Source: Cyanophora paradoxa CCMP329
Lineage: Eukaryota > Plantae > Glaucophyta
Direction: 5' to 3'
Length of the DNA stretch: 64,000 nt
Assembly (NCBI GenBank): GCA_004431415.1
Contig: QPMI01000535.1
Coordinates: 372,001 to 436,000 of the forward strand
Position 1 is the stretch's first letter. Each line of letters starts with the position of its first letter. The notes under the pieces are model-generated. The model made no database searches, had not been told where the DNA came from, and worked only from the letters and a program-made list of their open reading frames with translations. Both the position numbers and the translations under genes were made by a program. Of the stretch, positions 1 to 58,748 are shown one piece after another.

Positions 1-1036
1 ATTGCACGCTTCGAATAACCGAACTGGGTTCGAAAAAGCTCCTTGAATTTCGTGGCAGCCCACTCCGTCACGGTTGCATCAGTCGAATAAAATCGGCAGA
101 TCGCTTCCACTGTGCCTCGATTAAGAGATATCATGCCCTTTCCCAGTCCAAGCCGCTCTCGAATAGATGCGTAGGGTGCCTTTGCCAGCTTTTCGATTAC
201 TGTCTTCAGGCTCAGCCCGCGTGGATTTAATTTCACATACTCAAAGCATTCGAGCACGCAGTCATTCGCTGGGACATCGGGCAGTAAAGCTTGTCGACTG
301 TTCTGTGATAAAAAGGCAGTTTCGGTACGTTGCCTAGGGCGCCAGCCGCGTTATCTGCGATCAGCACTTCAATTGATGTCACTGTCCAAAAATCGTCTTC
401 CTGGTACGACATTTGAGCCGCCATCCACTGCGCAATGCGCTCATCCAGGCTCTCGGTCAAGGTCTGCAGTGCATTCTGTCTAATCTGAATCAGCTGCGTT
501 GTGTACATGTGATTGTTGTCAAAGCGGAACCGAATTATCACAAAGCGCCCTATCATCTCCGCAACGCCCAGCTGTCCGAGGATGTCAATCGTTAAATTCT
601 TGACCGACTCAGGATCAAAGTTGGGCTCAATCGCATATACATGCTTATCAAACAGCAAATTCGGATAGCGGTGATGCCTGTGAGAAAGCACACCATCTAG
701 ATCTCGTGGCACGGGAATTTCTTCAACGTCTTGAAATATATTCGGGACGTCTTCTAGTATCGCGTCCTCGGCCTGAACGGCGTTTGCGCGAGCTGCTGCA
801 ATTGCGCCGAAATGGCCTGCGAGCTGGCTTTCAAATAATCGGCGAGCTGGGCGAACTGTCCCTCGCAATCGCAGCAGTGTCGCAATATAGTTGCGAATCG
901 TGCGGCCCCAGGTCCCGCCGCTAGCGTCCGCTAGGCGCATCAGTTTGTTTCGAAATGTCCCGTGAACATATCCACGATCGTAAAGCTCTGTCGCTAAGTT
1001 TCTAAGTTCGGTCTTAAGTGCTGCAGTGGTGGCCAT
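1..1036 (-). CDS. 5' part of a probable Polinton/Maverick-type protein-primed DNA polymerase B (terminal protein + vOTU-like region); 1-nt frameshift near 279-281; runs off the window start
   Basis: Intronless ORF from ATG 1036 (MATTAALK...). Adding one C to the CCC run after LYC gives ...FWTVTSIEVLIADNAAGALGNVPKLPFYHRTVDKLYCPDVPANDCVLECFEY...GMISLNRGTVEAICRFY...ELFRTQFGYSKRA, open to base 1. The W-x-x-x-SI...LP...NDC pattern resembles Polinton pPolB N-termini (by eye). No polymerase motifs lie inside the window. Confidence 0.5.
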
Positions 1037-1147
1037 TGCAATCGCTTTCAAGAAGAGGGACTGAAATTATTTTCGGAATTCAGCGCAACAATCTCTGACT
1101 GTCAGATAGACTGAGAGGAACCTTTAAGCCATAGCTCAGACGTTCGC

Positions 1148-1582
1148 GACTTAGGACAAAAGTTCACGTCGGCGTTCGCGACTTTGGACAAAAGTTCACG
1201 TCCAAAATCCTCAAGCATGCAGGCGCACCCCCACGCATGTCTCCCGCAATCTAGCCGCTAATATAGCCTCAATTACACTATAAGAGACGACTAGGACAGT
1301 TGTTAGCCAATTCGGGCGGCGTTCTGAAGTTCGTGACTTTGGACAAAAGTTCACGTCCAAAATCCCCAAGCATGCAGGCGCATCCCCACGCATGCGTGGC
1401 ATGATCAAAGCGCTAGTATAGCCTCAATTACACCACAGGAGACTACTAGACTACTTGCTAGCCGATTCGGGCGCCGTTCTGAAGTTCGTGACTTTGGACA
1501 AAAGTTCACGTCCAAGGTCGCCTAGTGACTTTGGACAAAAGTTCACGTCCAAGGTCGCCTAGTGACTTTGGACAAAAGTTCA
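1148..1582. repeat. Six dispersed copies of a ~24-bp motif GACTTTGGACAAAAGTTCACGTCC, within 155-bp and 37-bp duplications
   Basis: Copies start at 1148, 1180, 1335, 1490, 1527 and 1564 (the last is truncated). Each has an internal ACTTT/AAAGT inversion. Confidence 0.9.
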
Positions 1583-1592
1583 AGAGCAATCT

Positions 1593-2164
1593 CTAGGCCT
1601 TATCGATCTGGCTATCCTTATCACTGTCAGGCTTGATGATCTTCGAGATCTCTCCGCGAATGCGGCGTGCAAGTTGAATGTCCTTCGGCATGATAGTGAC
1701 GCTGCAACGGAAAACGATCAGAGGATTGCAGGATATGACAAAAAGCAAGTTGGCTCACCGTTTAGCATGAATCGCGCACAGGTTAGCATCTTCGAACACT
1801 CCCACCAGATAAGCCTCGGCGGCAGTCTGGATCGCCAGCATGGCGTGCGACTGGAAGCGCAAGAGGGGATTAATGTCCTGAGTGATCTCGCGAACGAGTC
1901 GCTGGAATGGCAGCTTGCGAATCAGGAGATCCGTGGTCTTCTGGTACTTGCGGATCTCGCGCAACGCCACAGTGCCTGCAATCGTGATAATTAGATGAAA
2001 GCGACGGACGCACAGCTGCAGGGAATCCGTTGCTTACCTGGGCGATAGCGATACGGTTTCTTGACCGGACTAGCAAGAGGCAGCTTCACCTTGACTACGT
2101 TCGGCTGCTGACGTTCAGCGTTGCCCACAGTGCGCCTCGTCGGGTTGGCCTTCACGCGCGCCAT
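1593..2164 (-). CDS. Divergent histone H3 variant (3 exons)
   Basis: Exons 2164-2038, 1975-1759 and 1701-1593 with GT-AG introns of 62 and 57 bp give [150 protein letters not shown]. The H3 fold is unmistakable. Confidence 0.95.
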
Positions 2165-2777
2165 GTTTGCTGCAGCTGCTTTGTGCTTCTAGAAGGTTGC
2201 TGCTGCTCTATACGTGGGGTACTCGTACTAGTACTAGCAGGGGGTAAATTATGCAGGCTGCGCAGCGCGTGCACGTGATCGTACGATAGGCTACAGCTCC
2301 GCGCAGCGTTGTGCACACTGTGCCACGGTGCTCCTTTTTCGACGCATGCGCACGTGTTTTCTGGAGTTTTTTGGCGGTTCGGTTTCAAGTTGTTTCTTGC
2401 ACGTGTTTTTTATTAGGTCTGAAAAATCTGACTGCAAGCATTGGTCGGTTTTATTTGCATGCTGCATGTAATATATGTATATGTCGGGGACCCAGCTGAT
2501 CATGATCGCGAGCCGCGCGTGTTCGGCCGATTCGGTGGGGACTCGGTCGGTAAGTTGGGGAACTGCTACAAGTCTAGATCTAGACTCAGACTCTAGACTC
2601 ACTCAGTGTGACTCTAGCACTGCACTGCAGTACCAGGCTACTACCGTAGTACCAGGCTACTACCAGCTAAGTACTAGTCTAGCTAGCGACCTTCGTGCCG
2701 CGAGTTCTCTACTGAATCGATTTGCATGAATTCGAAATGAACAATGCGCAGAGCAAGTATTACCCGAATCACCGTAA

Positions 2778-3206
2778 GCTGGCATAAAAGTGAAGTATTA
2801 GATTTTAAACTTCTATGCTGGCATAAAAGTGAAGTATTAGATTTTAAACTTCTATGCTGGCATAAAAGTGAAGTATTAGATTTTAAACTTCTATGCTGGC
2901 ATAAAAGTGAAGTATTAGATTTTAAACTTCTATGCTGGCATAAAAGTGAAGTATTTGATTTTAAACTTCTATGCTGGCATAAAAGTGAAGTATTAGATTT
3001 TAAACTTCTATGCTGGCATAAAAGTGAAGTATTAGATTTTAAACTTCTATGCTGGCATAAAAGTGAAGTATTAGATTTTAAACTTCTATGCTGGCATAAA
3101 AGTGAAGTATTAGATTTTAAACTTCTATGCTGGCATAAAAGTGAAGTATTAGATTTTAAACTTCTATGCTGGCATAAAAGTGAAGTATTTGATTTTAAAC
3201 TTCTAT
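2778..3206. repeat. Tandem array, 11 x 39 bp (GCTGGCATAAAAGTGAAGTATTAGATTTTAAACTTCTAT)
   Basis: Exact 39-bp period. Copies 5 and 11 share an A>T variant. No spacers. Confidence 0.98.
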
Positions 3207-3721
3207 CCTACTAGGCTACTATGCTGGCCGTGAGTTCGGCCGATTCGATGGAGATTCGGTTGGTAAGTTGGGGAACTGCCGCAGCATTGAGTCCATTGAC
3301 TCAAGTGAATCGATTTACAGGCGGCCGCTGGCAGGCTGTGGCCGTTAACGTTGGGCAGCCGCTGAGCCTGCAGCTGGCAGGCGCCGGCGTGCCGCGGCAG
3401 ACTGTGCATATGCGCATGTTCACAGACTCGCTTCCGTAGTACAGAGCTGTCAACACAGCAGCTGCAGCAACCGCTCCATCCCGGAGTCCGTTTGCACATT
3501 CAACGGTAAGCTAACATGAAAGGTTGTGCATGCGGGGCCTGATCATGAGATGAGTCGCTATGCATGCAAGCAGAACTAATGCATATATACATGCTCACAG
3601 CTGCAGGTTGCTCACAGCAACCATATACGCGTGAACGCCACACAGGTGTGCATCTTGACACTATATATATATCATACGCAGTGTGCAGCACTCTCATCGA
3701 TCTTACGTCGGCATGTGCAGC

Positions 3722-5165
3722 ATGTCTATCAAAATCAGAGAACCGAATGAGAAGAAAACACGGCACTTTGTAACATTTGAGCTCGTTGATCGTAGAGAGT
3801 GTGACGACGACGATATGACGAAAGAGGAATGGGATGAGTGCCTGTGGAAGACTCTAGATGCTCTGTTTTACGGCCCCAGTCTTATTCGCACGAAGATCAA
3901 GTTTGCTCAATTTGCAGTATTCAAAACGACAACAAATGATGTGTTCCAAATTAAGGTATGCACCCATGCGAATTGAACAATGTAAATTGCGCCCATGCAC
4001 ACTGTTGCATATCACTCTCATTTACTTGACGTTTTCAGGGATTGATCACGACGAATACTAGTTATAATTGTACAGTTAAGCACATGAAAGACGCGTTGGA
4101 GATTCAGTTTGCAGATGATGGCGATTATTTCGGGCACACGCCCAATTACATTACTCCTCTTTTTGGGAAGACGGCTCAAAAAAAGGAACTGGAGACGCTA
4201 AACGTCAAGTCGAATAGATTGTCGAGCTGGTCAAATGGATCGGTGCGCAATGTACATGTATGGCGCGCACTGCATTCTGGCTCTAATGCTATTATAGCTG
4301 GACAACCAGGGAAATAGAAGATCCCCTGCCGAAGTGCAGCTTCGTGATAAAGTTCGACGTTTCCTCCGTGGTGATTGCATTCTCTTTTCTCACAATCATG
4401 TCTTGATTTGCATTTGCACAGAGCCAAGGAAATATGCGGATTTCATAGAACGGTTTCCACTCAAGTCTCGCGCTCTGGCCGGCCAAGCTGTGTTTACATG
4501 TGACAGGGACCGGAAAGCTCTATTTCTAGAGCTTTTTCCCAAGAGGAAAACCTACACAAAGATGTATTTTGTCACAGGTCTTGCTTTCACTCAAATTCTC
4601 CGACTGATAATATATATCTTCACACATTGTCAGGTGGCTCCCCAGAATCCCTGATTCAAAAGCTGATCGAGACCTACCCAGAGTCGGAAGTTTGGAAAAA
4701 ACCTGGCACGGTGTGCACTTATCGTGATAAAGTCTCTTTTATCTGATGGCAATGGTCACCTAGGAACGCGCTGGGTTCTGGGATGGCTACAATGGGGAAT
4801 CGTACATTTTTATCCCCAATTTTAGGGGTGAAATCTCCTTGAGCAGTATTATAAATGCTTGTTCTCCTCTTTCAAAGGCAAACTTGCCCATAATGTATGG
4901 TAACGAAATTTGGTTAGCTTCTACTCTTTTTATTTTTACAAGCGAAATTCACGTACGAGAGGTAATCGGTTATCGCTCCGGAAGTAATTACGTTACAAAA
5001 GCTGCATATCGTGATTTTAAAGATTTTGCGGCATGTTCCGGTGGTGGAATTATCCGTATTAAGAATATCGAAAAGCTTCTTAAGGCACGACAGGCCTATA
5101 GAAATGTAAAGAGAGATCTCGTAGTTGAATCTCCTGATGACATCTTGAAGATTTTTGATGACTAA
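3722..5165 (+). CDS. Spliced CRESS-DNA-virus (circovirus-like) Rep homolog with degenerate HUH and SF3 helicase motifs
   Basis: GT-AG introns at 3956-4038, 4243-4297, 4371-4421, 4578-4633 and 4711-4763 give one open frame. It includes ...SNGSLDNQGNRRS...RKTYTKMYFVTGGSPESLIQKLIETYPESEVWKKPGTERAGFWDGYNGESYIFIPNFRGEISLSSIINACSPLSKANLPIMYGNEIWLASTLFIFTSE..., collinear with circovirus Rep (QGxRSD; GPPGCGKS; WWDGYxGE; IDDFYG; KGG; ITSN). Confidence 0.8.
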
Positions 5166-5425
5166 GTTAGCTAGGTTCTTGTGAGCCAAAGGCTATGCAA
5201 GCTAGCTTGACGCTTTCCAAAATCAGCTAGGTCTCTTGTGAGTAAAATACTACGCAAGCTAGCTGGCGCTTTCTCCTGAGGCCGCAGCAGACCGCGCGCA
5301 AGCAACCGGGGCCCCAAGTACACCCACACACGCCCTCCTAAACTCAGTTCCGATATCTCCCCAAACAAACGCCTAATCAACACGCCTACTCTTTCTCACT
5401 AATTTCGCTCATCGATCACGCTTAT

Positions 5426-5493
5426 AGGGGTGGACCCCTGATGGTAAAACCAGACTTTGGGGGGCGGTCTGGTTTGGGGGGGGGTCCACCCCT
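5426..5493. other. 68-bp fold-back (hairpin or mini-MITE)
   Basis: AGGGGTGGACCCC pairs with GGGGTCCACCCCT; inner AAACCAGAC pairs with GTCTGGTTT. Confidence 0.8.
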
Positions 5494-5743
5494 TTACAAC
5501 AGACGGATCAGGCGCTAGCCGATCAGGTATTTGGATCGGTATATGTATATGATAGTATCGATCTGGAATTCGAAGACCGTCGACGTCCGACGGTCGACGG
5601 CATATAACATCAATTGCAACTTGCAAGTTAGGATGTCCATGCGCATGCCATGATCGTGATGCGCGTACGCGTGGATTTAAATGCGCATAGTATCGGCTGT
5701 TCGAAGCTGATCACGAGCAGCTATAGATTATTCAATGAATTAC

Positions 5744-6052
5744 CTCGGAAAAGACGATGATCCCGTTCCCGTCCGTATCAAACTCGTTGATCATGTTTCT
5801 GCACAGCCGCCGCGGCCGCGGCGCATTATTAATTGCACGTCACCACACAAGTAGGAAGCCTAAGGAATTTCGAATGCATTCGCGAACGCATACGTACTGG
5901 ATCTCGGCGTCCGTGGGAGTCTGGCCGTAAGATGCCATGACCGCGACGATTTCGGCTTTGGTCATGGAGCCGTCTCCGTTGGTGTCGAAGTTGCTGAACG
6001 CATCCGCGATCTCAGAGATCTGCTCTTCGGTGAACTGCCCCGTCGATGCCAT
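5744..6052 (-). pseudogene. Calmodulin-like EF-hand gene, N-lobe only (downstream exons not found)
   Basis: MASTGQFTEEQISEIADAFSNFDTNGDGSMTKAEIVAVMASYGQTPTDAEIQ, intron, NMINEFDTDGNGIIVFSE, then a GT donor with no recognisable next exon. Confidence 0.7.
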
Positions 6053-7976
6053 CTGGATCTGCGCACAAACTCGAAGCGGTGAGCGCGCGCGATCGCGAGC
6101 CAGCTGCAGCGCCCCGACGCGCATGCGCCTAGGCCTGCAGCTGTGCCCTGGCCTGGCCAGGCCGACCGCGTGCGTATACGTATATACGTATTCGTATACG
6201 GGCACGGCGCGGGCATGCGCACGGCCGATCAGCGCACCGGTTCGAAGCCTTAAGCTAAAACGCGAACGCGCTAGGGTGACCCGGTGTCCTTCGGAATACA
6301 AGTTCTGTCCGTCGGACAATGAGCGCTGAAGCTGGATGGTGTCGAGCTCGAGCACACTGTGACCGTGGCGTGTACTATAACTAGGAGCGCTATATAGCAA
6401 GCTGCACGCGCTAGCGATAGGCACCGCTAACGCTCCTAGCATGCACACGCACCTCCTACGAGGGATCCTGGGCCGGGAAGCGCGCGTGATCGACCGTGCA
6501 GCGTGCGCATGCGCGGGACGCGGCGCTGAGTCGGCGGCGCCGGCGCCGGCGCCGAATGGGCGCGCCGGCGCCGGCGCCGGCGCCGGCGGTACTTCCGGAA
6601 GTTTTTTCTGCCGGATCATCGGATCTGTCAAAAAAAGAGCCCCCCCCCCCTTCATCCACTTGCCAACTTGCAAAAAAAACGAATTCGAATATCGGCCGCG
6701 GGCCAACTCGGACGGTAAACTCGGCGGGCCAACTCGGACGCGGGAACGTTGACTTGTAACGAGCAGATCTAGGCCCGATTCTAGAGTCGCCGGCGCCTCA
6801 CGCCGAGCTCGAGGGACACGCGTACGCAGAAACCGAGACCGAGAATTCGAAGAGGGCAAGGCCAGGAGCTCGAGGAGAGACATCAATGTTTTTTTAAAAA
6901 TGCATTTGCGCCGAATCAATGCGCGTGCGTACGGACATTGTCGGACAATACTCGCTCTTCATAATCCTACTCTTGCTGCAGCAATTGCAAGTATGTTTGG
7001 GAATCATCACCATCATTGTTCATTTCCGACCACAAACGTCAATTTTCAAGCGAGGCGTTACATTCAACAGCAAGGCGATGCATTTGAATATTCGGACTTA
7101 TGTTCGAATGTTCCAGCCTTTTTACTGATCGGGATTCGGGAGCCACAGGCGCACGTCTGCTTCGGCATCGAGCGGGGGCGGGGGCGAGGGCGCGCCCTCG
7201 CCCGCCCCGAGCCGCACGCCGCCCTCCTGCTCCAGCAGCAGCGCGAGCTTCCCCGACATCACCGTCGCCCCGTCGAACTGGCGCCCGTTCGCGTTCCCGT
7301 GAGCGGCGGCCCGTGCTCAGGGGGCGAGGAAGGGGGGATCCAGATCTAGAGGGGCGGACCTTGCAGCCGTGGAACTCCTGCGCCCGCTTCTTCCCGATGC
7401 GCCTGGCGCAGAAGACGCGCTGCGAAGGGCCTTGCGCATCAGCGGACCGGCTCACATAAAGCTTCGAAGAGGCGGCGCGGATCGCACGGGGAGGGTCGAG
7501 ATGGATACGGTCCCGTCGGGGCGGGCTGCCGCCAGCAGGCCCCGACCGCCAAGCGCGTCCTGCGCGCGCACGCGCGAGCATCAGAATACGCGCGCGCGGT
7601 ACGAGAGAAATGCAAATTAAATCTATTTAGCCGGCGCACCTCTGAAAACGCGTAGCCTTTGAGTTGTTCGGACTTTGCTTCGGCCGCGGCCGCGGGTCCT
7701 TCCTAAGTACGGTACACGTGGTCATGATCAGCGGCTAGTTAACGTTTGGCGGGCTGCGAGCGAACAGCAACGAAATAAGAATTCCCCGCACCTCGGAGGG
7801 CGCGTGTCCGGACGCCGAGGCCGCTGGGGAGGCCGAAGCCCAGACCACCTCCTCCTCGCCGTCCGGAGCGACGGCGCACACTCTCGTGTCAACCTGAGAC
7901 GAGATTCACGCGCGGCGCGGGACGGCCCGCGCCGCGCCGAGAGATAGCCTAAGGTGGCTTAGGTGTGGCGGTAGAG

Positions 7977-33424: not shown

Positions 33425-36400
33425 CAAGATCCGTGCTCCTGCGGAGCACTAAGTACGGCGAAGCCTCGCGGACGCCCTCGCGGCTGTCATAGTAGGCCTA
33501 TGTATAGGGCACTCAGCGACTGGCCAGCGGCCTGGCCGATCGCGAACAGCTTTCTGCAGCTGGCTGGAAGCTGGCTGGCTGACGGCCAGTCCAGCTAGCG
33601 CTGGCCGGCTAGAGGAATATTAATTTACTGAGGAAATAAAGGCTAGGGTGGAGCAGATTGAGAAGAGATTAATTATAATATTGTTGGGAAGGAGGCCCGG
33701 GAGGGGCGAGGTTGTCGCGGCCAGGCGCATGCACAGAGCTTGCGAATCGCTTAAACAGAATCTCGCGATCGAATGCATATAGCATTGATGTGCGGGGCTG
33801 CGGAGGCGAGGGCGCGCGGAAAGACGTGCAGGTCCATGCAGGATCGAATTTTCGGGGTCGGCTGGATTCTCGCGCCCTGTCGCGTCCTCGGAGCTCGCGA
33901 AAAGCTTAACAAAGATCTCAAATTACTATTGTAGCGATGCGCACGCGCGAGGATGCGAGGGCGCGCGGAAAGCTGTGCAGGTCCGTCCAGGATCGAATTT
34001 TCGGCGTCGGCTCGCGGCCCGGCACATCTGCAATGCGTGCGGAAGGCTTTGTCTACATCTGAAATGCTTATCATATTGTTCCGCGCATGCGCCGCGGCGT
34101 TGGCGCACGGAAAGATGTCCGGGTCTGTTCAGAATCGATTTTTTACCGTCGGCTGGGTTGTCGTGCTCTTCCGCGTCTTCAAAGCTTGTGGAAGGCTTCA
34201 AAAAAATGTGAAATGAATATTGTAGCGATGCGCATGCGCGAGGATGCGAGCGCGCAAGAAAAGGTCTTCAGGTCTGTAGAGGATCGAATTTTCGGGGTCG
34301 GCTGGGTCCTCGCGGCCCGGCGCATACGCAAAGCGTGCGGAAGGCTTCTTCTACATCTCAAATGCTTATGCTATTCTTCCGCGCATGTGCCGCGGCGCGG
34401 GCGCGCGGAAAGATGTCCGGGCTGTGCAGGATCGAATTTTTGCCACCGGGAGCCTTCCTGCGCTGTTCCGGCTCCGAAAAGCGGATCGCTGGAGTGCGCA
34501 GGTCCTGCTATGTCTATGCGCGCCCGTACGCATCGATTGCGCACGTCGCGGGACCGGCCGGAACCGGCCGGATCAAATTTTCGGCCGACTCTTCGCACTG
34601 GAGCGTCGAGGGTGCCCGAAATCGAGCCTGCCGCGATGCGCTCGCGCTCGCGCGTCATTCTGTATCGTTCTGGGGCGTCCCTGGCGCGATTTCGTCGCGG
34701 GACCGGGCGGGACCGGGTCCCACCTTCTGACTCGGACTGCATGTGTCGGAGGTTAAGTACCGGAATTGATCCAGAGGGAAATTCGATTTTCGCGCGACGC
34801 CCACGGGAGAGCGGTCGTCTTAGGGGAGCCAGGACGCTAAAAATGGATGTAGAGGGGTCTGTGGGGGTTCGGGCAGCTGTGTAATGTCCATCAATCGCGT
34901 CTGTGTCGAGGCAGAATTAATAATTCTGCCTCGAGGGAGTGTGACACGGAAATTATTTAGCAGGGGGGATCTTGAGTGGAAAAAAAGGTTAAAAAAGGAA
35001 TTTCGGTCGGCGGTTTTTGGGTTTGAGACAAGATCCGTGCTCCTGCGGAGCACTAAGTACGGCGAAGCCTCGCGGACGCCCTCGCGGCTGTCATAGTAGG
35101 CCTATGTATAGGGCACTCAGCGACTGGCCAGCGGCCTGGCCGATCGCGAACAGCTTTCTGCAGCTGGCTGGAAGCTGGCTGGCTGACGGCCAGTCCAGCT
35201 AGCGCTGGCCGGCTAGAGGAATATTAATTTACTGAGGAAATAAAGGCTAGGGTGGAGCAGATTGAGAAGAGATTAATTATAATATTGTTGGGAAGGAGGC
35301 CCGGGAGGGGCGAGGTTGTCGCGGCCAGGCGCATGCACAGAGCTTGCGAATCGCTTAAACAGAATCTCGCGATCGAATGCATATAGCATTGATGTGCGGG
35401 GCTGCGGAGGCGAGGGCGCGCGGAAAGACGTGCAGGTCCATGCAGGATCGAATTTTCGGGGTCGGCTGGATTCTCGCGCCCTGTCGCGTCCTCGGAGCTC
35501 GCGAAAAGCTTAACAAAGATCTCAAATTACTATTGTAGCGATGCGCACGCGCGAGGATGCGAGGGCGCGCGGAAAGCTGTGCAGGTCCGTCCAGGATCGA
35601 ATTTTCGGCGTCGGCTCGCGGCCCGGCACATCTGCAATGCGTGCGGAAGGCTTTGTCTACATCTGAAATGCTTATCATATTGTTCCGCGCATGCGCCGCG
35701 GCGTTGGCGCACGGAAAGATGTCCGGGTCTGTTCAGAATCGATTTTTTACCGTCGGCTGGGTTGTCGTGCTCTTCCGCGTCTTCAAAGCTTGTGGAAGGC
35801 TTCAAAAAAATGTGAAATGAATATTGTAGCGATGCGCATGCGCGAGGATGCGAGCGCGCAAGAAAAGGTCTTCAGGTCTGTAGAGGATCGAATTTTCGGG
35901 GTCGGCTGGGTCCTCGCGGCCCGGCGCATACGCAAAGCGTGCGGAAGGCTTCTTCTACATCTCAAATGCTTATGCTATTCTTCCGCGCATGTGCCGCGGC
36001 GCGGGCGCGCGGAAAGATGTCCGGGGCTGTGCAGGATCGAATTTTTGCCACCGGGAGCCTTCCTGCGCTGTTCCGGCTCCGAAAAGCGGATCGCTGGAGT
36101 GCGCAGGTCCTGCTATGTCTATGCGCGCCCGTACGCATCGATTGCGCACGTCGCGGGACCGGCCGGAACCGGCCGGATCAAATTTTCGGCCGACTCTTCG
36201 CACTGGAGCGTCGAGGGTGCCCGAAATCGAGCCTGCCGCGATGCGCTCGCGCTCGCGCGTCATTCTGTATCGTTCTGGGGCGTCCCTGGCGCGATTTCGT
36301 CGCGGGACCGGGCGGGACCGGGTCCCACCTTCTGACTCGGACTGCATGTGTCGGAGGTTAAGTACCGGAATTGATCCAGAGGGAAATTCGATTTTCGCGC

Positions 36401-38623
36401 GACGCCCACGGGAGAGCGGTCGTCTTAGGGGAGCCAGGACGCTAAAAATGGATGTAGAGGGGTCTGTGGGGGTTCGGGCAGCTGTGTAATGTCCATCAAT
36501 CGCGTCTGTGTCGAGGCAGAATTAATAATTCTGCCTCGAGGGAGTGTGACACGGAAATTATTTAGCAGGGGGGATCTTGAGTGGAAAAAAAGGTTAAAAA
36601 AGGAATTTCGGTCGGCGGTTTTTGGGTTTGAGACAAGATCCGTGCTCCTGCGGAGCACTAAGTACGGCGAAGCCTCGCGGACGCCCTCGCCGCTGTTACA
36701 GTAGGCCTATATATATAGGGCACTCAGCGACTGGCCAGCGGCCTGGCCGATCGCGAACAGCTTTCTGCAGCTGGCTGGAAGCTGGCTGGCTGACGGCCAG
36801 TCCAGCTAGCGCTGGCCGGCTAGAGGAATATTAATTTACTGAGGAACTAAAGGGTGGAGCAGATTGAGAAGAGATTAATTATAATATTGTTGGGAAGGAG
36901 GCCCGGGAGGGGCGAGGTTCTCGCGGCCAGGCGCATGCACAGAGCTTGCGAATCGCTTAAACAGAATCTCGCGATCGAATGTATATAGCATCGATGTGCG
37001 GGGCTGCGGAGGCGAGGGCGCGCGGAAAGACGTGCAGGTCCATGCAGGATCGAATTTTCGGGGTCGGCTGGATTCTCGCGCCCTGTCGCGTCCTCGGAGC
37101 TCGCGAAAAGCTTAACAAAGATCTCAAATTACTATTGTAGCGATGCGCACGCGCGAGGATGCGAGGGCGCGCGGAAAGCTGTGCAGGTCCGTATACGTAC
37201 AGGATCGAATTTTCGGGGTCGGCTGGGTCCTCGCGGCTCGGCGCATACGCAAAGCGTGCGGAAGTCTTTGCCTACATCTCAAATGCTTATGCTATTGTTC
37301 CGCGCATGCGCCGCGGCGTGGGCGCGCGGAAAGATGTCCGGGTCCGTGCAGGATCGAATTTTTGCCGTCGGCTGGGTTCTCGTGCTCTTTCGCGTCTTCG
37401 AAGCTTGTGGAAGGCTTTGATAAAATCTCAAATGAATATTGTAGCGATGCGCATGCGCGAGAATGCGAGGGCGTGCGGAAAGATGTTCAGGTCCGTACAG
37501 GATCGAATTTTCGGGGTCGGCTGGGTCCTCGCGGCCTGGTGCATTTAGAGACCGTGCGGAAGTCTTCTTCTACATCTAAAATGCATATGCTATCGTTCCG
37601 CGCATGCGCCGCGGCGTGGGCGCGCGGAAAGATCTCCGGGCCTGTCTAGGATCGAATTCTTGCCGTCGGGTATGTCCAGGATCGAATTTTTGCGTCGGCT
37701 GGGTTCTCGTGCCCTGTCGCGCCTGCAGAGCTTGCGAAAAGCTTTAAAAAGGAGTCAACTGAAAATTGTAGCGATGCGCTCGCGTGAGGATGCGAGGGCG
37801 CGCGGAAAGTTGTGCAGGTCCGTCCAGGATCGAATTTCCGGGGTCGGCTGGGTCCTCGCGGCCCGGCGCATTTAGAGACCGTGCGGAAGGCTTCTTCTAC
37901 ATCTCAAATGCTTATGCTATCGTTCCGCGCATGCGCCGCGGCGCGGGCGCGCGGAAAGATCTCCGGGCCTGTCTAGGATCGAATTTTTGCCGTCGGGTAC
38001 CTTCCTGCGCTCTTCCGGCTCCGAAAAGCGGATTTCGGGGGTGCGCAGGCGCTGCTATGTCTATGCGCGCCCGTACGCATCGATTGCGCGCGTCGCGGGA
38101 CCGGCCGGAACCGGCCGGATCAAATTTTCGGCCGACTCTTCGCACTGGAGCGTCGACGGCGCGCGAAATCGGGTTTGCGGCGATGCGCTCGCCCTCGCGC
38201 GTCATTCTGTATCGTTCTGGGGCGTTCCTGGCGCGATTTTGTCGCGGGACCGGGCGGGACCGGGTCCCACCTTCTGACTCGGACTGGATTTGTCGGAGGT
38301 TAAGAACCGGAATTGATCCAGAGGAATATTCGATATTCGCGCGACGCCCACGGGAGAGCGGTCGTCTTAGGGGAGCCAGGACGCTAAAATTGGCTCTAGA
38401 GAGGTCTGTGGGGGTTCGGGTGGCTGTGTGACTAGCAGCAATCGCGTCTGTGTCGAGGCAAAATTAATAATTCTGCCTCGAGGGAGTGCGACACGGAAAT
38501 TATTTAGCAGGGGGGATCTCGAGTGGAAAAAAAGGTTAAAAAAGGAATTTAGATCGTCGGTTTTTGGGTTTGAGAAAGAGGCTTCGCCTGAAAGAGGCTT
38601 CGCCTGAAAGAGGCTTCGCCTGA
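33425..38623 (-). mobile_element. Trimer of a non-autonomous Helitron/Helentron-like element
   Basis: Bodies 33425-35028, 35029-36633 (near identical) and 36634-38575 (diverged, longer), plus three stacked 16-bp 5' ends at 38576-38623. Element strand: 5'-TCAGGCGAAGCCTC ... GAGGCTTCGCC-GTACTTA-GTGCTCCgcaGGAGCAC hairpin-GGATCTTG-3'. Flanks A|T, no TSD. Confidence 0.85.
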
Positions 38624-39275: not shown

Positions 39276-42200
39276 CAGGGATGTGAAAATTATTGAGGGT
39301 CCCCCGAGGGTCCAAAAATTATGGCGATAATTTTTGCCTTGTATGTATAATTTATGGAAAATTATGGGAAAAATTATGCCATACAAAGCGGAAAAGTTTC
39401 GTCGCTCAGCCTTGTTTCGTTGCTCAGAAGCATTATATGCATGTTAGAGTGCTTTATTGACTCTCAGAGATATGTCCTGGGCCGCTAATGACGCTCTGGA
39501 GCAAGGATGGCTGGGTGACAGCGGGGGGGGTAGGGGCTCTTAGAGGGGGGAAGAGGCGCCGACGCACCTCACATTCAGCACCCGCAAAGCAGCCTTATTT
39601 GCTTTCAATACATTGTACATCTATCTTATAACGTTTAGAGGCGCCAGGGGGGTGTCCTCTAAAAATCAGGCGAAGCCTCTTTCAGGCGAAGCCTCTTTCT
39701 CAAACCCAAAAACCGCCGATATAAATTCCTTTTTTAACCTTTTTTTCCACTCGAGATCCCCCCTGATAAATAATTTCCGTGTCGCACTCCCTCGAGGCAG
39801 AATTATTAATTCTGCCTCGACACGGTCACGATTGCCGCTAATGACTCAGCTACCCTAACCCCCACACACCTCTCTAGATCCATTTTTAGCGTCCTGGCTC
39901 CCCTAAGACGACCGCTCCCCCGTGGGCGTCGCGCGAATATCAAATTTCCCTCTGGATCAAATCCGGTCCTTAACCTCCGACAAATGCAGTCCAGGTCAGA
40001 AGGTGGGACCGGGTCAGGCGAAGCCTCTTTCTCAAACCCAAAAACCGCCGATATAAATTCCTTTTTTAACCTTTTTTTCCACTCGAGATCCCCCCTGATA
40101 AATAATTTCCGTGTCGCACTCCCTCGAGGCAGAATTATTAATTCTGCCTCGACACGGTCACGATTGCCGCTAATGACTCAGCTACCCTAACCCCCACACA
40201 CCTCTCTAGATCCATTTTTAGCGTCCTGGCTCCCCTAAGACGACCGCTCCCCCGTGGGCGTCGCGCGAATATCAAATTTCCCTCTGGATCAAATCCGGTC
40301 CTTAACCTCCGACAAATGCAGTCCAGGTCAGAAGGTGGGACCCGGTCCCGCCCGGTCCCGCGACGAAATCGCGCCAGGGACGCCCCAGAACGATAAAGAG
40401 TGACGGGCGAGGGCGAGCGCATCGACGCAAGCTCGATTTCGGGCGCCGTCAACGCTCCAGTCCGAACAGTAGGCCGAAAATTTGATCCGGCCGGTTCCGG
40501 CCGGTTCCGCGAGGCGCGCATTCGATGCGTACTGGCGCGCATAGACATAGCAGGGCCTGCGCACCCCCGAAATCTGCTTTTCGGAGCCGGAATAGCGCAA
40601 GAAGGTACCGGACATCAAAAATTCGATCCTGCACAAACCTGGACAGCTTTCCGCGCGCCAACGCCGCGGCGCATGCGCGGAACGATAGCATAAGCATTTG
40701 AGATGTAGACAAAGCATTCCGCACGGTCTCTAAATGCGCCGGGCCGCGAGGACCCAGCCGACGCCGAAAATTCGATCCTGGACGGACCTGCACAGCTTTC
40801 CGCGCGCCCTCGCATCCTCACGCGTGCGCATCCCTACAACAGTAGTTTGAGATCTTTGTCAAGCTTTTCGCGAACTCTAGAGATGCGACAGGGCGCGAGA
40901 ATCCAGCCGACCCGAAAATTCGATCCTGGCCAGGCCTGCAAAGCTTTCCGTGTGCCCTTGCCTCCGCACCCCTGCACATCGATGCTATATGCATTCTAGA
41001 TTCTGTTTAAGCGATTCCCAAGCTCTGTGCATGCGCCTGGCCGCGAGAACCTCGCCCCTCCCAGGCCCGGCGGCCTCCCTCCCAACAATATTATATAGTT
41101 AATCTCCTCTCAATCTGCTCCACCAGTTAAAAGCAAGCGTTACCGGTTCAACTCCGGTCTCCCCTAGTTAATTATATATTCCCTCTCCTCATTACATTGC
41201 TCTCTGGCCAGCCAGCTCTCCCTCGAGCTGGCTAAAGCGGGCCAGCCCATGGCCGGTGCCAAGCCGGCGAAACCCGGCCATGCAGCTGGGCGGGGCCGGG
41301 TCCAGCTGGCCTCCTACTGTGACAGCCGCGAGGGCGTCCGCGAGGCTTCGCCGTACTTAGTGCTCCGCAGGAGCACGGATCTTGTCTCAAACCCAAAAAC
41401 CGCCGACCGAAATTCCTTTTTTAACCTTTTTTTCCACTCAAGATCCCCCCTGCTAAATAATTTCCGTGTCACACTCCCTCGAGGCAGAATTATTAATTCT
41501 GCCTCGACACAGACGCGATTGATGGACATTACACAGCTGCCCGAACCCCCACAGACCCCTCTACATCCATTTTTAGCGTCCTGGCTCCCCTAAGACGACC
41601 GCTCTCCGTGGGCGTCGCGCGAAAATCGAATTTCCCTCTGGATCAATTCCGGTACTTAACCTCCGACACATGCAGTCCGAGTCAGAAGGTGGGACCCGGT
41701 CCCGCCCGGTCCCGCGACGAAATCGCGCCAGGGACGCCCCAGAACGATACAGAATGACGCGCGAGCGCGAGCGCATCGCGGCAGGCTCGATTTCGGGCAC
41801 CCTCGACGCTCCAGTGCGAAGAGTCGGCCGAAAATTTGATCCGGCCGGTTCCGGCCGGTCCCGCGACGTGCGCAATCGATGCGTACGGGCGCGCATAGAC
41901 ATAGCAGGACCTGCGCACTCCAGCGATCCGCTTTTCGGAGCCGGAACAGCGCAGGAAGGCTCCCGGTGGCAAAAATTCGATCCTGCACAGCCCGGACATC
42001 TTTCCGCGCGCCCGCGCCGCGGCACATGCGCGGAAGAATAGCATAAGCATTTGAGATGTAGAAGAAGCCTTCCGCACGCTTTGCGTATGCGCCGGGCCGC
42101 GAGGACCCAGCCGACCCCGAAAATTCGATCCTCTACAGACCTGAAGACCTTTTCTTGCGCGCTCGCATCCTCGCGCATGCGCATCGCTACAATATTCATT

Positions 42201-43092
42201 TCACATTTTTTTGAAGCCTTCCACAAGCTTTGAAGACGCGGAAGAGCACGACAACCCAGCCGACGGTAAAAAATCGATTCTGAACAGACCCGGACATCTT
42301 TCCGTGCGCCAACGCCGCGGCGCATGCGCGGAACAATATGATAAGCATTTCAGATGTAGACAAAGCCTTCCGCACGCATTGCAGATGTGCCGGGCCGCGA
42401 GCCGACGCCGAAAATTCGATCCTGGACGGACCTGCACAGCTTTCCGCGCGCCCTCGCATCCTCGCGCGTGCGCATCGCTACAATAGTAATTTGAGATCTT
42501 TGTTAAGCTTTTCGCGAGCTCCGAGGACGCGACAGGGCGCGAGAATCCAGCCGACCCCGAAAATTCGATCCTGCATGGACCTGCACGTCTTTCCGCGCGC
42601 CCTCGCCTCCGCAGCCCCGCACATCAATGCTATATGCATTCGATCGCGAGATTCTGTTTAAGCGATTCGCAAGCTCTGTGCATGCGCCTGGCCGCGACAA
42701 CCTCGCCCCTCCCGGGCCTCCTTCCCAACAATATTATAATTAATCTCTTCTCAATCTGCTCCACCCTAGCCTTTATTTCCTCAGTAAATTAATATTCCTC
42801 TAGCCGGCCAGCGCTAGCTGGACTGGCCGTCAGCCAGCCAGCTTCCAGCCAGCTGCAGAAAGCTGTTCGCGATCGGCCAGGCCGCTGGCCAGTCGCTGAG
42901 TGCCCTATACATAGGCCTACTATGACAGCCGCGAGGGCGTCCGCGAGGCTTCGCCGTACTTAGTGCTCCGCAGGAGCACGGATCTTGTTTTCTATAAATT
43001 ATGGATGGCCGAAACCGGGGGCAAAAATTATCCCATAATTATTCGAAAAATTATGGAATACTTTTTCCATAATTTATGGGCGGCGAACCCTG
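39276..43092. mobile_element. hAT-like non-autonomous element interrupted by a Helitron-like array (second copy 48464-49117)
   Basis: CAGGGATGTGAAA...AACCCTG ends; many subterminal AAATTAT(G) motifs; no 8-bp TSD. Confidence 0.5.
39666..42987 (+). mobile_element. Helitron-like array: stacked 5' ends, partial B, full B (40014-41384), A body (41385-42987)
   Basis: Same termini as the trimer. The empty site in the duplicated unit (CCTCTAAAAA|TTTTCTAT, 49012/49013) shows precise insertion with no TSD. Confidence 0.9.
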
Positions 43093-44689: not shown

Positions 44690-45255
44690 CGGACCGCCCC
44701 AGCGGCCCCCCACGAATCGCGCCCCCGCTCCCGCCGCAGCTGCTCCGCTGCCCCTCGCCGACGGCGCAATTCGCCGCCGCTGGACCCACGCTCGCTCTCT
44801 CCAGGCCCGCCGCCCGCTCCGCAGCCTTTCTGGCGGGCCGCCCCAGCGGCCCCCCACGAACCGCGCCCCCGCTCCCGCCGCAGCTGCTCCGCTGCCCCTC
44901 GCCGACGGCGCAATTCGCCGCCGCTGGACCCACGCTCGCTCGCTCCAGGTCCGCCGCCCGCGCCGCAGCCTTTCTGGCGGGCCGCCCCAGCGGCCCCCCA
45001 CGAACCGCGCCCCCGCTCCCGCCGCAGCTGCTCCGCTGCCCCTCGCCGACGGCGCAATTCGCCGCCGCTGGACCCACGCTCGCTCGCTCCAGGTCCGCCG
45101 CCCGCGTCGCAGCCTTTCTGGCGGGCCGCCCCAGCGGCCCCCACGAATCGCGCCCCCGCTCCCGCCGCAGCTGCTCCGCTGCCCCTCGCCGACGGCGCAG
45201 TTCGTCGCCGCTGGACACACGCTCACTCGCTCGAGGTCCGCCGCCCGCGCCACGC
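44690..45255. repeat. 144-bp GC-rich tandem repeat, ~4 copies (also ~53710-54276)
   Basis: AGCGGCCCCC anchor at 44701, 44845, 44989 and 45133. Confidence 0.9.
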
Positions 45256-47920
45256 GCATCTCAAGATGCCGTACCCTGGGGGGGACGCCCTGCGAGCGGT
45301 AGCGTGGCCGTTTCTGAGCCCGCGCTCTCGCCGCAGGCCCTCGGCGTTCGCTGCGCGTCCGGCCGGCTTCGGCGATGGGCGAGGTACGCGGAATATCGGA
45401 GGGGAGGGCGGCGGGGGGGCGGCGGGGGTAGAGGATGGGAAGGGGGTACCCCAGCGCCCCCCGCCGCGGCTCACGCTCTTCCGCAGGCCGCTCGAGCTCC
45501 ACCGGCGCGGCGTCCGCGCCCCTCTCCCTTCGCCATCAGGTGCGCTGGCGCTCGGGCCGAGGCCGGTGTTGTCGTCGGCTCCTCAGCGCCGCCCGGCCGC
45601 CCTGCGCATCCCAGAATGCCGTACCCTAGGGGCGCGCCCTGCGAGCGGTAGCGTGGCCCTTTCTGACTGCCCCGCGCTCTCGCCGCAGGCCCTCGGCGTT
45701 CGCTGCGCGTCCGGCCGGCTTCGGTGAAGTGGGAGGTACGCGGTATTTCGGGGAGAGGATGGGCGGGGGGAGGGGGAAGAGGGCCTGGGTACGCCAGCGC
45801 CCCCCGCGCGGCTCACGCTCTTCCGCAGGCCGCTCGAGCTCCACCGGCGCGGCGTCCGCGCCCCTCTCCCTTCGCCATCAGGTGCGCTGGCGCTCGGGCC
45901 GAGGCCGGTGTTGTCGTCGGCTCCTCAGCGCCGCCCGGCCACCGTGCGCATCCCAGAATGCCGTACCCTAGGGGCGCGCCCTGCGAGCGGTAGCGTGGCC
46001 CTTTCTGACTGCCCCGCGCTCTCGCCGCAGGCCCTCGGCGTTCGCTGCGCGTCCGGCCGGCTTCGGTGAAGTGGGAGGTACGCGGTATTTCGGGGAGAGG
46101 ATGGGCGGGGGAGAGGGGGAGGGGGCCTGGGTACGCCAGCGCCTCTCGCCGCAGCTCACGCTCCTCCGCAGGCCGCTCGAGCTCCACCGGCGCGGCGTCC
46201 GGCGCGTGCGCCTATCTCCCATGGCCATCGGGTGCGTTGGCGCAGGCGCTTCAGCGGCCGCCCGTCCGCCCGTCCGCCACGCGCATCTCAAGATGCCGTA
46301 TCCTGGGGGGGCGCGCCCTGCGAGCGGTAGCGTGGCCGTCTCTGAGCCCGCGCTCTCGCCGCAGGCCCTCGGCGTTCGCTGCGCGTCCGGCCGGCTTCGG
46401 CGATGGGCGAGGTACGCGGAATATCGGAGGGGAGGGCGGCGGGGGGCGGCGGGGGTAGAGGATGGGAAGGGGGTACCCCAGCGCCCCCCGCCGCGGCTCA
46501 CGCTCTTCCGCAGGCCGCTCGAGCTCCACCGGCGCGGCGTCCGCGCCCCTCTCCCTTCGCCATCAGGTGCGCTGGCGCTCGCGCCGAGGCCGGTGTTATC
46601 GTCGGCTCCTCAGCGCCGCCCGGCCGCCGTGCGCATCCCAGAATGCCGTACCCTAGGGGCGCGCCCTGCGAGCGGTAGCGTGGCCCTGTCTGACTGCCCC
46701 GCGCTCTCGCCGCAGGCCCTCGGCGTTCGCTGCGCGTCCGGCCGGCTTCGGTGAAGTGGGAGGTACGCGGTATTTCGGGGAGAGGATGGGCGGGGGGGAG
46801 GGGGAGGGGGCCTGGGTACGCCAGCGCCTCTCGCCGCAGCTCACGCTCCTCCGCAGGCCGCTCGAGCTCCACCGGCGCGGCGTCCGGCGCGTGCGCCTAT
46901 CTCCCATGGCCATCGGGTGCGTTGGCGCAGGCGCTTCAGCGGCCGCCCGTCCGCCCGTCCGCCAGGCGCATCTCAAGATGCCGTACCCTGGGGGGGCCGC
47001 CCTGCGAGCGGTAGCGTGGCCGTCTCTGAGCCCGCGCTCTCGCCGCAGGCCCTCGGCGTTCGCTGCGCGTCCGGCCGGCTTCGGCGATGGGTGAGGTACG
47101 CGGAATATCGGAGGGGAGGGCGGCGGGGGGGCGGCGGGGGTAGAGGATGGGAAGGGGGTACCCCAGCGCCCCCCGCCGCGGCTCACGCTCTTCCGCAGGC
47201 CGCTCGAGCTCCACCGGCGCGGCGTCCGCGCCCCTCTCCCTTCGCCATCAGGTGCGCTGGCGCTCGGGCCGAGGCCGGTGTTGTCGTCGGCTCCTCAGCG
47301 CCGCCCGGCCGCCGTGCGCATCCCAGAATGCCGTACCCTAGGGGCGCGCCCTGCGAGCGGTAGCGTGGCCCTTTTTGACTGCCCCGCGCTCTCGCCGCAG
47401 GCCCTCGGCGTTCGCTGCGCGTCCGGCCGGCTTCGGTGAAGTGGGAGGTACGCGGTATTTCGGGAACAGGATGGGCGGGGGGGGGGGAAGAGGGCCTGGG
47501 TACGCCAGCGCCTCTCGCCGCAGCTCACGCTCCTCCGCAGGCCGCTCGAGCTCCACCGGCGCGGCGTCCGGCGCGTGCGCCTATCTCCCATGGCCATCGG
47601 GTGCGTTGGCGCAGGCGCTTCAGCGGCCGCCCGTCCGCCCGTCCGCCACGCGCATCTCAAGATGCCGTACCCTGGGGGGGCGCGCCCTGCGAGCGGTAGC
47701 GTGGCCGTCTCTGAGCCCGCGCTCTCGCCGCAGGCCCTCGGCGTTCGCTGCGCGTCCGGCCGCGGGCCGGCTTCGGCGATGGGCGAGGTACGCGGAATAT
47801 CGGAGGGGAGGGCGGCGGGGGGCGGCGGGGGTAGAGGATGGGAAGGGGGTACCCCAGCGCCCCCGCCGCGGCTCACGCTCTTCCGCAGGCCGCTCGAGCT
47901 TCACCGGCGCGGCGTCCGGC
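45255..47920. repeat. ~343-bp satellite, 8 copies, alternating variants forming a ~685-bp higher-order unit (also ~54276-56945)
   Basis: CCTGCGAGCGGTAGCGTGGCC recurs near 45289, 45638, 45980, 46317, 46665, 47001, 47350 and 47686. Confidence 0.9.
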
Positions 47921-57469: not shown

Positions 57470-57932
57470 ATGCGCCGGCCGGCCCCCCGCGCCCGCCCCG
57501 CGCCCGCCCTGCCCGCCCGCCCGCCCCGCCCCACCCCGCGCCGCGCCGCCCCGCCCCGCCCGCCCCGCGCCGCCCGCTCCGCCCGCCCGCCCCGCCCCGC
57601 CCGCCCGCCCCGCCCGCCCCGCCCCGCCCCGCCCCGGCGCCGCCCCGCCCCGCCCCGCCCCGCCCCGCCGCGCCGCCCGCCCCGCCCCGCCCCGCCCCGG
57701 CGCCGCGCCGCCCGCCCCGCCCCGCCCCGCCGCCCCGCCCCGCCCCGCCCGCCCGCCCCGCCCCGCCCCGCCCCGCCCGCCCCGTCGCCGCCCCGCCCCG
57801 CCCCGCCCCGCCCCGCCCGCCCCGCCCGCCCCGCCCCGCCCGCCCCGCCCCGCCCCGCCCCGCCCCGCCTTGCCCCGCCCCGCCCCGCCCCGCCCCGCGG
57901 CCGCCCCGCCCTCTCCCGGGCCCTGCCCCGCC
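57470..57932. repeat. Degenerate (CCCCG)n tract, ~460 bp
   Basis: Almost pure C/G pentamer repeats, bounded by GTATGCG at 57468 and CCCAG at ~57935. Confidence 0.9.
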
Positions 57933-58748
57933 CAGATGCCAAGCTAATATTAGCTGCCGCCACTAGCTAACGCTATCAGCTAGCTAGCTGATATTGTAAA
58001 TAATTATAATTACGCATACCTGCAGCCGAGCGCGAGCGGCAAGCGCGGCAGCCAGGCGGGCCGCGGGCCGGGGCGGCGGGGCGGGGCGGGCAGGGGACCC
58101 TCGAGCTCGGCCTGGCACCCCAGCGGCGCCGGCCGCCGAGCGCCGCGCCTGATACATATCGATCATGACGCGGGGCCTTCCGCGCGTCGAGGCGGCATGG
58201 CATGCGGCTGAGCGTGCACAGATCTGGCCATGGGCGGCGCCGCGGCGTGGCAGCGTTGCCGCACATTGACAGTCGGCGCCTGCCCAGATCTAGAGGACCC
58301 TCGGCCTGCCGCCCCCCACATGGCCAGCCGGCTGCCGAGCGCCGCGCCTGCCGCGGGGCCTCCCTTGCTGGTTCTAAAACATCATGCATGGCCGCGGGTC
58401 GCTCGTGAGGGAGGAGTCGAGAGTGGAGGTTGGGAGGAAGAAGTGGGAGGGTAGGTTCAGGTTCGAACGCTGGATTGGATCGCGCCACCCAAGTCCACAG
58501 GTCCGGCGGGGAGTCGGGAGCCGGTCATCGCTGGCCGAACGTGGGGAGCCGGAGCTCCTGGACCTCGGCCTTACGGGCCCAGCTGGGCCCTGCCGACGCT
58601 GCGTCCGGATCCGGGTCTCCACCAGCTTGACCTCCTTCCGCTCCCGCCGCCGCCGTGGGGTCCTGAGCGGTCGCGTCTGTACCCCTTGCGGGAACCCTCT
58701 TCCTAGCCCCCCCCCCCCCCCCCACCCCCCACCCCCACCCCCCCTCCC

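Follow-up and report, generated by a model that had tools for sequence, protein, structure and literature searches.

Captured Rep genes and the Cyanophora locus

Few genes are captured as often, whether by cells or by other viruses, as those encoding the Rep proteins of small circular DNA viruses and, to our knowledge, the helicase chemistry of the captured Reps usually survives. Katzourakis and Gifford are said to have studied endogenous sequences of this kind in eukaryote genomes in 2010. Passages of Liu et al. (2011, PMC3198968) describe endogenous Rep-like sequences as widespread in eukaryotes, some of them being long-open, expressed and read as co-opted. According to parts of a second paper (PMC10193959), the avipoxvirus apvRep genes and the U94 gene of human herpesvirus 6 (HHV-6) are captured Reps whose nuclease motifs are inactivated, and which have been retained and are thought to be non-enzymatic or exapted; the same parts report, for captured viral Reps, purifying selection with a ratio of nonsynonymous to synonymous substitution rates (dN/dS) of 0.17-0.33, RNA evidence, and mostly intact Walker A and Walker B motifs. 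The replitron transposases, as presented in sections of Craig (2023, PMC10288648), are eukaryotic, intron-bearing, distant kin of the Reps found in CRESS (circular Rep-encoding single-stranded) DNA viruses, and are missed by Pfam; they exhibit an active-looking Y1 HUH domain, are devoid of a helicase, comprise 662 residues, and are multi-copy and mobile. Here we describe a Rep-like gene at positions 3722-5165 (+) of a 64,000-nt stretch of the genome of the glaucophyte Cyanophora paradoxa CCMP329 (contig QPMI01000535.1, positions 372,001-436,000), the whole stretch analysed being referred to below as the window. The gene carries five introns, its residues ~209-355 resemble, as judged by sequence comparison, the superfamily 3 (SF3) helicase of CRESS-DNA virus Reps, and it is a candidate for a Rep-derived exapted gene.

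An open frame across five introns

Splicing five GT-AG introns of 83, 55, 51, 56 and 53 bp out of 3722-5165 (+) leaves a coding sequence (CDS) of 1146 nt, i.e. 381 codons and a stop. This agrees with a preliminary description of the locus, which had proposed a five-intron gene with an intact reading frame that escapes the list of open reading frames; indeed, none of the uninterrupted frames listed covers the spliced gene. Positing introns gives large freedom in finding open frames. The longest ATG-to-stop frame attainable in 3600-5300 when as many as five GT-AG introns of 45-95 bp are allowed was compared with that of 150 dinucleotide shuffles: the real sequence yields 412 residues, and the shuffles average 229 (standard deviation 41.5) and do not exceed 342. 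When YAG acceptors are required, the real sequence yields 410 residues and the shuffles (n=150) average 189, with a standard deviation of 43.6 and a maximum of 322. The opposite strand reaches 248 residues in the same test, and 144 with YAG acceptors. Random codons of the CDS composition would be expected to include ~23.7 stops over a length of 381, and the frame has none; 7-32 stops occur in each of the other five reading frames of the spliced sequence.

The CDS has a GC content of 43% and a GC content at third codon positions (GC3) of 0.44. Starting at an alternative in-frame ATG (3713) would lengthen the protein by three residues. The TATATATATA run at 3662-3671 (+), 51 nt upstream of the ATG at 3722, may be a TATA box; TATATATATA has 14 overlapping exact matches in the window, among which this copy is the sole one within 1-30000.

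Similarity of the C-terminal half to CRESS-DNA virus Reps

The region resembling the Rep SF3 helicase (residues ~209-355) maps to 4535-5084 (+) and is split by introns 4 and 5. Most of it is encoded by exon 6 (4764-5165; codons 249-381 and the stop), preceded by exon 5 (4634-4710; codons 223-248). The preliminary description had called the protein circovirus-like, and for the C-terminal half this is borne out by the PDB ranking, the ESM Atlas, sequence profiles, hhalign and a segment-wise test. When 177,635 PDB sequences are searched with exon 6 by phmmer, two circovirus Reps head the list (8xms, E 0.099; 7lar, E 0.18), with FWDGYNGESYIFIPNF aligned to WWDGYHGEEVVVIDDF. In the ESM Atlas, rank 3 for exon 6 is a Cressdnaviricota cluster (score 0.92), 24% of whose members carry PF00910. 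The motif FWDGYNGE (residues 253-260), cited earlier as a retained structural signature, is found identically in several environmental Reps. A search with this 8-mer led to four viral contigs of 2.4-2.9 kb with ordinary Reps, and the alignment of these four Reps retrieved 63 loci; 45 distinct Reps were drawn from all loci fetched.

The profile of these 45 environmental CRESS Reps scores the spliced protein at 33.7 bits, as compared with at most 6.6 bits in 2000 shuffles. A profile of the 16 Reps devoid of FWDGY still gives 23.4 bits over residues 209-314, a value reached by 0 of 1000 shuffles, and hhalign reports a hit over residues 231-315 (96.2% probability). Of all stop-to-stop frames in the window with at least 25 residues (n=1,411), exon 6 ranks first for both profiles (E 1.1e-7 and 7.7e-5), the runner-up frames lying at E 0.43 and 0.12. 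In a position-specific matrix test on segments chosen so as to leave out the 8-mer, residues 259-309 reach z 8.0 (0/500 shuffles), followed by residues 310-381 (z 2.1; 19/500) and 206-250 (z 1.8; 27/500).

In three cases, BLAST alignments to single Reps extend collinearly from residue 142-145 to 308-314, and in seven cases the alignment begins at residue 222, just before GGSPESL, opposite the Walker A motif of the Reps. Collinear matches are found at the Walker A slot, Walker B, motif C, WY, the Arg pair and RIK.I..L. In a 34-row alignment of exon 6 with the C-terminal halves of 33 Reps, D255, Y257 and T307 are invariant throughout; the Cyanophora protein also keeps F268, G270, S308, Y318, R331 and R346, the latter two standing opposite the paired Arg of the Reps, 14 residues apart, and the similarity runs on to R346-L353 (RIKNIEKL, 346-353). 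QGNRRS, the other signature named in the preliminary description, is present at residues 150-155 and collinear with the G..QG.R.DL block of Reps, but the match is weak. A tree of the helicase segment groups the protein with the 16 FWDGY-type Reps (support 97/99), a placement to be read with the caveat of its long terminal branch: 8.81 changes per column, where the median is 0.075 and the next-longest branch has 2.59.

An AlphaFold2 model of exon 6 guided by the 33 Rep C-terminal halves has a mean predicted local distance difference test (pLDDT) score of 66, and 73-88 over residues 1-60. It matches the ATPase domain of porcine circovirus 2 (PCV2) Rep (8xms; probability 1.00, 2.5 Å over 81 columns), as well as 7lar and the vientovirus Rep 9pqj; since the guiding alignment consists of Reps, these matches are a compatibility check and not independent evidence. 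This Rep-driven model is the only confident one; a single-sequence AlphaFold2 model of exon 6 was unusable (pLDDT 32.4).

Elsewhere in the window, a short frame at 61045-61194 (-) with a generic P-loop-like LLRGRPGRGKV is the second-best match to the Rep profiles, an insignificant one (E 0.12-0.43), and probably has no relation to them.

Loss of the catalytic motifs

The motif strings quoted in the preliminary description (QIKG, QGNRRS, GGSPESL, FWDGYNGE, IPNF and TSE) are all found in the spliced protein, and GGSPESL (in profile and BLAST alignments) and IPNF and TSE (in the alignment with 33 Reps) fall opposite the catalytic Walker A, Walker B and motif C of the Reps, as had been claimed. 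The Walker A slot reads GGSPESL (residues 223-229, exon 5), with PES in place of GK[ST] and hence no Lys-Ser/Thr, and no [AG]x4GK[ST] occurs in the 381 residues. Where the protein reads IFIPNF, in the Walker B slot, a pair of acidic residues (DE, DD or EE) is present in each of the 33 Reps aligned; IPNF (265-268) stands opposite their [IVMF][DE][DE][FY], and no hhh[DE][DE] is found anywhere in the protein. In motif C, TSE (307-309) lies opposite TS[NV] or TTN, the Thr and Ser being kept and the Asn replaced by Glu. The 34-row alignment further reports SPLS in place of the DRYP of Reps and 14 extra residues between the two Arg.

The nuclease motifs are likewise missing. The whole protein, with four His in total, contains no HxH or HxQ. 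Its sole YxxK, at residue 324, falls within the helicase-like half and none occurs in the first half, in line with the earlier statement that no YxxK is evident. Given that Walker A, HxH/HxQ and an N-terminal YxxK are all absent, no canonical Rep nuclease or P-loop ATPase function can be assigned, whichever alignment is preferred; the protein as predicted is unable to work as either enzyme.

Exons and introns

Exon 1 (3722-3955) encodes codons 1-78 and exon 2 (4039-4242) codons 79-146. Exon 3 (4298-4370) covers codons 147-171 and exon 4 (4422-4577) codons 171-223, the last codon of each being split. Exon 4 is basic and ends in a hydrophobic strand, MYFVT, just before the Walker A slot; the middle region as a whole (residues 147-222) holds 19 Lys and Arg for 9 Asp and Glu.

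Intron 1 (3956-4038; 83 bp, GTATGC...TTTCAG) and intron 2 (4243-4297; 55 bp, GTGCGC...TTATAG) are of phase 0, with TTGAC 9 nt and CTAAT 11 nt before their respective ends. Intron 3 (4371-4421; 51 bp, GTGATT...GCACAG) is of phase 1, and as it is in frame and stop-free its retention would add 17 residues and leave the frame open. Intron 4 (4578-4633; 56 bp, GTCTTG...TGTCAG) is of phase 1 with CTGAT 26 nt before its end, and intron 5 (4711-4763; 53 bp, GTGTGC...CACCTAG) of phase 0 with CTGAT 17 nt before its end; all lie on the + strand. Exactly one branch-point-like YTRAY motif is located 9-26 nt from the 3' end in each of the five introns; of 73 AG sites within exons, 12 have such a motif in that zone. 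The histone H3-like gene nearby has two introns of the same style, with CTAAT and CTGAT at this distance. Judged by these signals, the introns of the Rep-like gene are likely genuine spliceosomal introns.

BLAST alignments to single Reps run without a gap across the exon 4/5 and 5/6 junctions, so introns 4 and 5 are insertions relative to Rep rather than frameshifted coding sequence. The introns may have been gained after capture, the 45 viral Reps of the comparison set having been taken as single frames of at least 220 residues. An introner-type origin was rejected: pairwise local scores among the five introns are 6-14, with no shared sequence.

Copy state

In all four DNA sequencing runs, one contig spans 3160/3162-5205 with 0 differences and no polymorphism. 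Its depth over the gene (4.1, 43, 65 and 121) equals that of the unique flanks, and several-fold higher depth is found at 1-1640, 2575-3276 and 5149-5616. At least 94% of sampled words are present in 18 of 24 listed runs, four of which may be the source. The gene is single-copy, fixed and intact in the species. No paralog was found in the 64,000-nt window, so the dN/dS comparison among paralogs that had been suggested has no material here. A tblastn search of phage records gave six chance matches (E at least 0.1), and a metagenome scan returned only a CRESS contig already in the set (L004).

Origin and fate of the gene

Extreme divergence, the loss of all catalytic motifs, 381 open codons and five well-formed introns together speak for a captured Rep gene that has long been resident and is retained in a non-catalytic role, a reading that we hold to be somewhat probable on sequence grounds. 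Such a combination is hard to square with neutral decay or a recent insertion. The donor would have been a CRESS-DNA virus or a related plasmid-like replicon; after capture, five introns would have been gained and ATP hydrolysis and DNA nicking would have been lost, with selection keeping the frame open. The helicase-like core might then mediate self-association, and the basic region (residues 147-222) nucleic-acid binding, both without catalysis; interference with viral Reps would be an alternative role. Exaptation rather than decay would follow from one step of reasoning, namely that the frame is open despite a terminal branch of 8.8 changes per column for the Rep-like segment. A more elaborate proposal, which we regard as rather doubtful, is an anciently domesticated pseudo-helicase that gained five introns, discarded its nuclease and ATPase chemistry and is under selection, either as a dominant-negative antiviral whose core, still able to oligomerise, would poison the Rep hexamers of related viruses on entry, or as a DNA or chromatin scaffold beside the variant H3 gene.

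Several observations weigh against a long-resident captured Rep. Regarding the N-terminal part, HMMER and end-free profile alignments of residues 1-229 to Rep profiles score no better than shuffles for similarity to the Rep nuclease, and PDB searches with exon 1, exon 2 and exons 3-4 return unrelated entries (E at least 0.88). Pfam analysis of exons 1-4 reports nothing meaningful. The preliminary description had equated QIKG (residues 76-79, across the exon 1/2 junction) with HUH motif II; with no Rep-nuclease similarity by profile, Pfam or PDB search in residues 1 to 208 or 229, this mapping is a collinear guess and is unsupported. A greedy hhalign extension matches HFVTFEL (residues 15-21, exon 1) to motif I, FQIKG to motif II and NYITP to motif III, with a confidence near zero except at WSNGSLDNQGNR; NYITP belongs to NYITPLFGK (residues 114-122, exon 2), where Rep motif III would fall. 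A dead HUH domain in the N-terminal part is thus possible but unsupported, and the first 208 residues may represent either a Rep nuclease diverged beyond recognition or unrelated exons. In the Atlas, the neighbours of exon 1 are Rpp14/Pop5 clusters (score 0.85, weak). Two viral-contig matches selected by 8-mers of the N-terminal exons (L071 and L072) lie in unrelated proteins of 140 and 652 residues and were rejected as chance.

Further points on the same side concern the helicase-like part and the wider setting. With FWDGYNGE masked, the HMMER scores fall to 3.0 and -0.1 bits, values that 2/1000 and 27/1000 shuffles reach, which means that most of the HMMER signal resides in one motif. The 45 Reps were collected with patterns partly derived from the Cyanophora protein itself, and the profile E-values by themselves are not decisive at the scale of the whole scan; nor is the Rep-guided model an independent witness. 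An exhaustive phmmer search of 1,835,955,588 representative proteins returned no relative at E <= 0.001, and word-indexed protein searches with exon 6 scored 0 of 259 and 0 of 19 candidates. These searches thus brought to light neither a close relative among public proteins nor an ortholog from which dN/dS could be computed, and no annotated gene model showed up. Searches for the Pfam families PF02407 and PF00910, put forward earlier as a check, found no Rep or helicase family in five separate exon pieces at E <= 10, the only rows being chance ones (Slo-like_RCK, E 0.083; PYRIN, E 0.17). Four sequencing runs presumed, by guess, to be RNA gave no contig on 3601-5141. Lastly, the GC3 of 0.44, compared with ~0.70 in the H3-like neighbour, is not that of a well-settled regional gene composition.

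Some of these points would equally suit a silent relic, i.e. an unexpressed, functionless endogenous CRESS Rep fragment that would owe its open frame to a recent capture, to luck and to the latitude that posited introns allow. Such a relic would leave no contig in the presumed RNA runs and no relative or gene model among 1.84 billion proteins, its GC3 could differ from that of the neighbouring gene, and its catalytic motifs could all be gone; moreover, shuffled sequence gives spliced frames averaging 229 residues and reaching 342, and passages of PMC3198968 describe endogenous Rep-like sequences mostly as interrupted relics. We nevertheless find it unlikely. A recent capture does not fit the heavy divergence: with 8.8 changes per column on its branch and every motif replaced, the frame contains 0 stops where 23.7 would be expected. 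In addition, when compared with Rep, introns 4 and 5 stand out as clean insertions, and branch-like motifs are present in all five introns.

Less likely again is that the gene serves a larger integrated element, such as an intron-bearing large DNA virus or a transposon, lying in a low-GC island at 1-6000. The window is mostly of 60-77% GC, whereas its first 6 kb have 46-56% GC, and this island runs off the left end. It also carries the H3-like gene, whose tail is divergent, and a 277-codon frame for which no relative was found, in DNA at several-fold unique depth. Large viruses are reported to capture Reps and inactivate their motifs (parts of PMC10193959), and intron-rich, histone-encoding mirusviruses have been reported as well (a portion of PMC12768974). 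However, 44 low-GC and 11 GC-rich frames yielded no virus hallmark or transposase family, and no Pfam family was found in the 55 frames tested. The Rep-like gene is single-copy, the three island genes differ in GC3 (0.44, 0.55 and 0.70), and no terminal repeats bracketing the gene were found. Neither a capsid gene nor any further virus-like frame was found in the window. As for a CRESS origin, ANTATTAC occurs twice in the window as compared with 1.56 expected, i.e. at chance frequency, and the AGTATTAC 8-mer at 2756-2763 lies in no stem (z 0.34).

The most improbable alternative, an orphan gene not derived from Rep, with a chance resemblance to it in the WDGY-type motif and its flanks, could draw on the empty Pfam and library-wide phmmer searches, the collapse of the HMMER score once the 8-mer is masked, the N-terminal 60% without Rep signal and the failed single-sequence fold (pLDDT 32), but is opposed by the z of 8.0 (0/500) for the segment after the 8-mer alone, by the two circovirus Reps heading 177,635 PDB sequences, by the Cressdnaviricota helicases to which the Atlas points, and by the collinear matches from the Walker A slot through Walker B, motif C, WY and the Arg pair to RIK.I..L.

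Neighbouring genes and repeats

The histone H3-like gene is located at approximately 1593-2164 (-). Pfam analysis assigns it to Histone (E 1.1e-27) with a near-canonical fold; it has a divergent N-terminal tail, a C-terminal extension and two introns of ~57-60 nt with the donors GTAAGC and GTGAGC. The 277-codon frame (236-1066, -) is intronless, has a GC content of 51% and belongs to no Pfam family, and 0 of 1264 candidate relatives scored; it sits in DNA of several-fold depth with variant copies and may belong to a repeat or transposon of no assigned class. Another open frame, at 3-350 (-), runs on to the left end of the window.

An AT-rich 39-bp unit is repeated 11 times with 99% identity at 2778-3206, ~500 bp upstream of the Rep-like gene and just after the AGTATTAC 8-mer; read depth and loose ends indicate that the genome has similar arrays at other places. 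Direct repeats are found at 5169-5217 and 5225-5273. A nested hairpin, GGGGTGGACCCC...GGGGTCCACCCC with an inner stem AAACCAGAC/GTCTGGTTT, lies at 5423-5496, 260 bp past the stop codon (folding free energy -32.7 kcal/mol, z -5.0); it falls within 5149-5616, a stretch present at 5-13x unique depth that might represent a small mobile element. As a replication origin this hairpin was rejected, for it is without a nonanucleotide and lies in multi-copy DNA. Putative EF-hand or calmodulin-like exons at ~5730-6060 (-), containing FSNFDTNGDGSMTKAEI and MINEFDTDGNGIIVF, converge on the 3' side of the Rep-like gene; one Pfam attempt at the coordinates tried gave no family.

Repeats fill much of the rest of the window. 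Tandem units of 149 bp are found on both strands at 33800-38000, 40700-42600 and 50900-51500. Two near-duplicate arrays, at 45239-47918 and 54260-56942, comprise 7.8 copies each of a 342-344 bp unit, and each follows an array of four 144-bp units. A (CCCCG)n run of ~450 bp extends over 57485-57933. Rfam and tRNA scans of the window returned nothing.

Comparison with known systems

A captured Rep that lost the catalytic residues of both domains, gained five introns and kept its frame would, if the reading is right, indicate that a bare Rep fold can be worth keeping, and would single out, in a protist or alga, a specific gene that may encode a factor derived from Rep for interference or DNA binding. 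Such captured genes could then drift very far from viral Reps and, as the library-wide sequence searches missed this one, screens based on BLAST or Pfam would undercount old captures.

The closest match is the SF3 helicase of CRESS Reps (PCV2 structures 7lar and 8xms; environmental Reps L001-L064), with which the C-terminal half shares the order and spacing of motifs: a strand and Gly at the Walker A slot, [FW]WDGY.G, a strand ending in F.G, TS, WY, the paired Arg and RI..I. In contrast with a CRESS Rep, the gene is chromosomal, has five introns, bears replacements in its motifs, lies on a long branch and has no recognisable nuclease domain; unlike in a CRESS replicon, no capsid gene or stem-loop origin was found in the window.

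Replitrons represent the reverse case, since, as they are presented in sections of PMC10288648, the Rep-like gene has what they lack and lacks what they have: a helicase-like part only, no HUH domain and a single copy. A replitron or Helitron identity was rejected.

Like the endogenous Rep-like sequences treated in passages of PMC3198968, the gene is a chromosomal copy of a Rep-related sequence. It differs from them in its five introns (the word "intron" is absent from the main text of PMC3198968) and in the loss of every catalytic motif, and it is so diverged that BLAST-type screens would miss it. With apvRep and U94, as described in parts of PMC10193959, it shares a location outside a rolling-circle context and the loss of the nuclease motifs; those genes reside in virus genomes and are intronless, whereas the one described here has introns and has lost the helicase motifs as well. 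No account of a multi-intron, fully motif-dead Rep was found in the portions of the literature covered. As compared with the known captured Reps, the Cyanophora gene is unusual in combining five introns with the loss of the helicase chemistry too.

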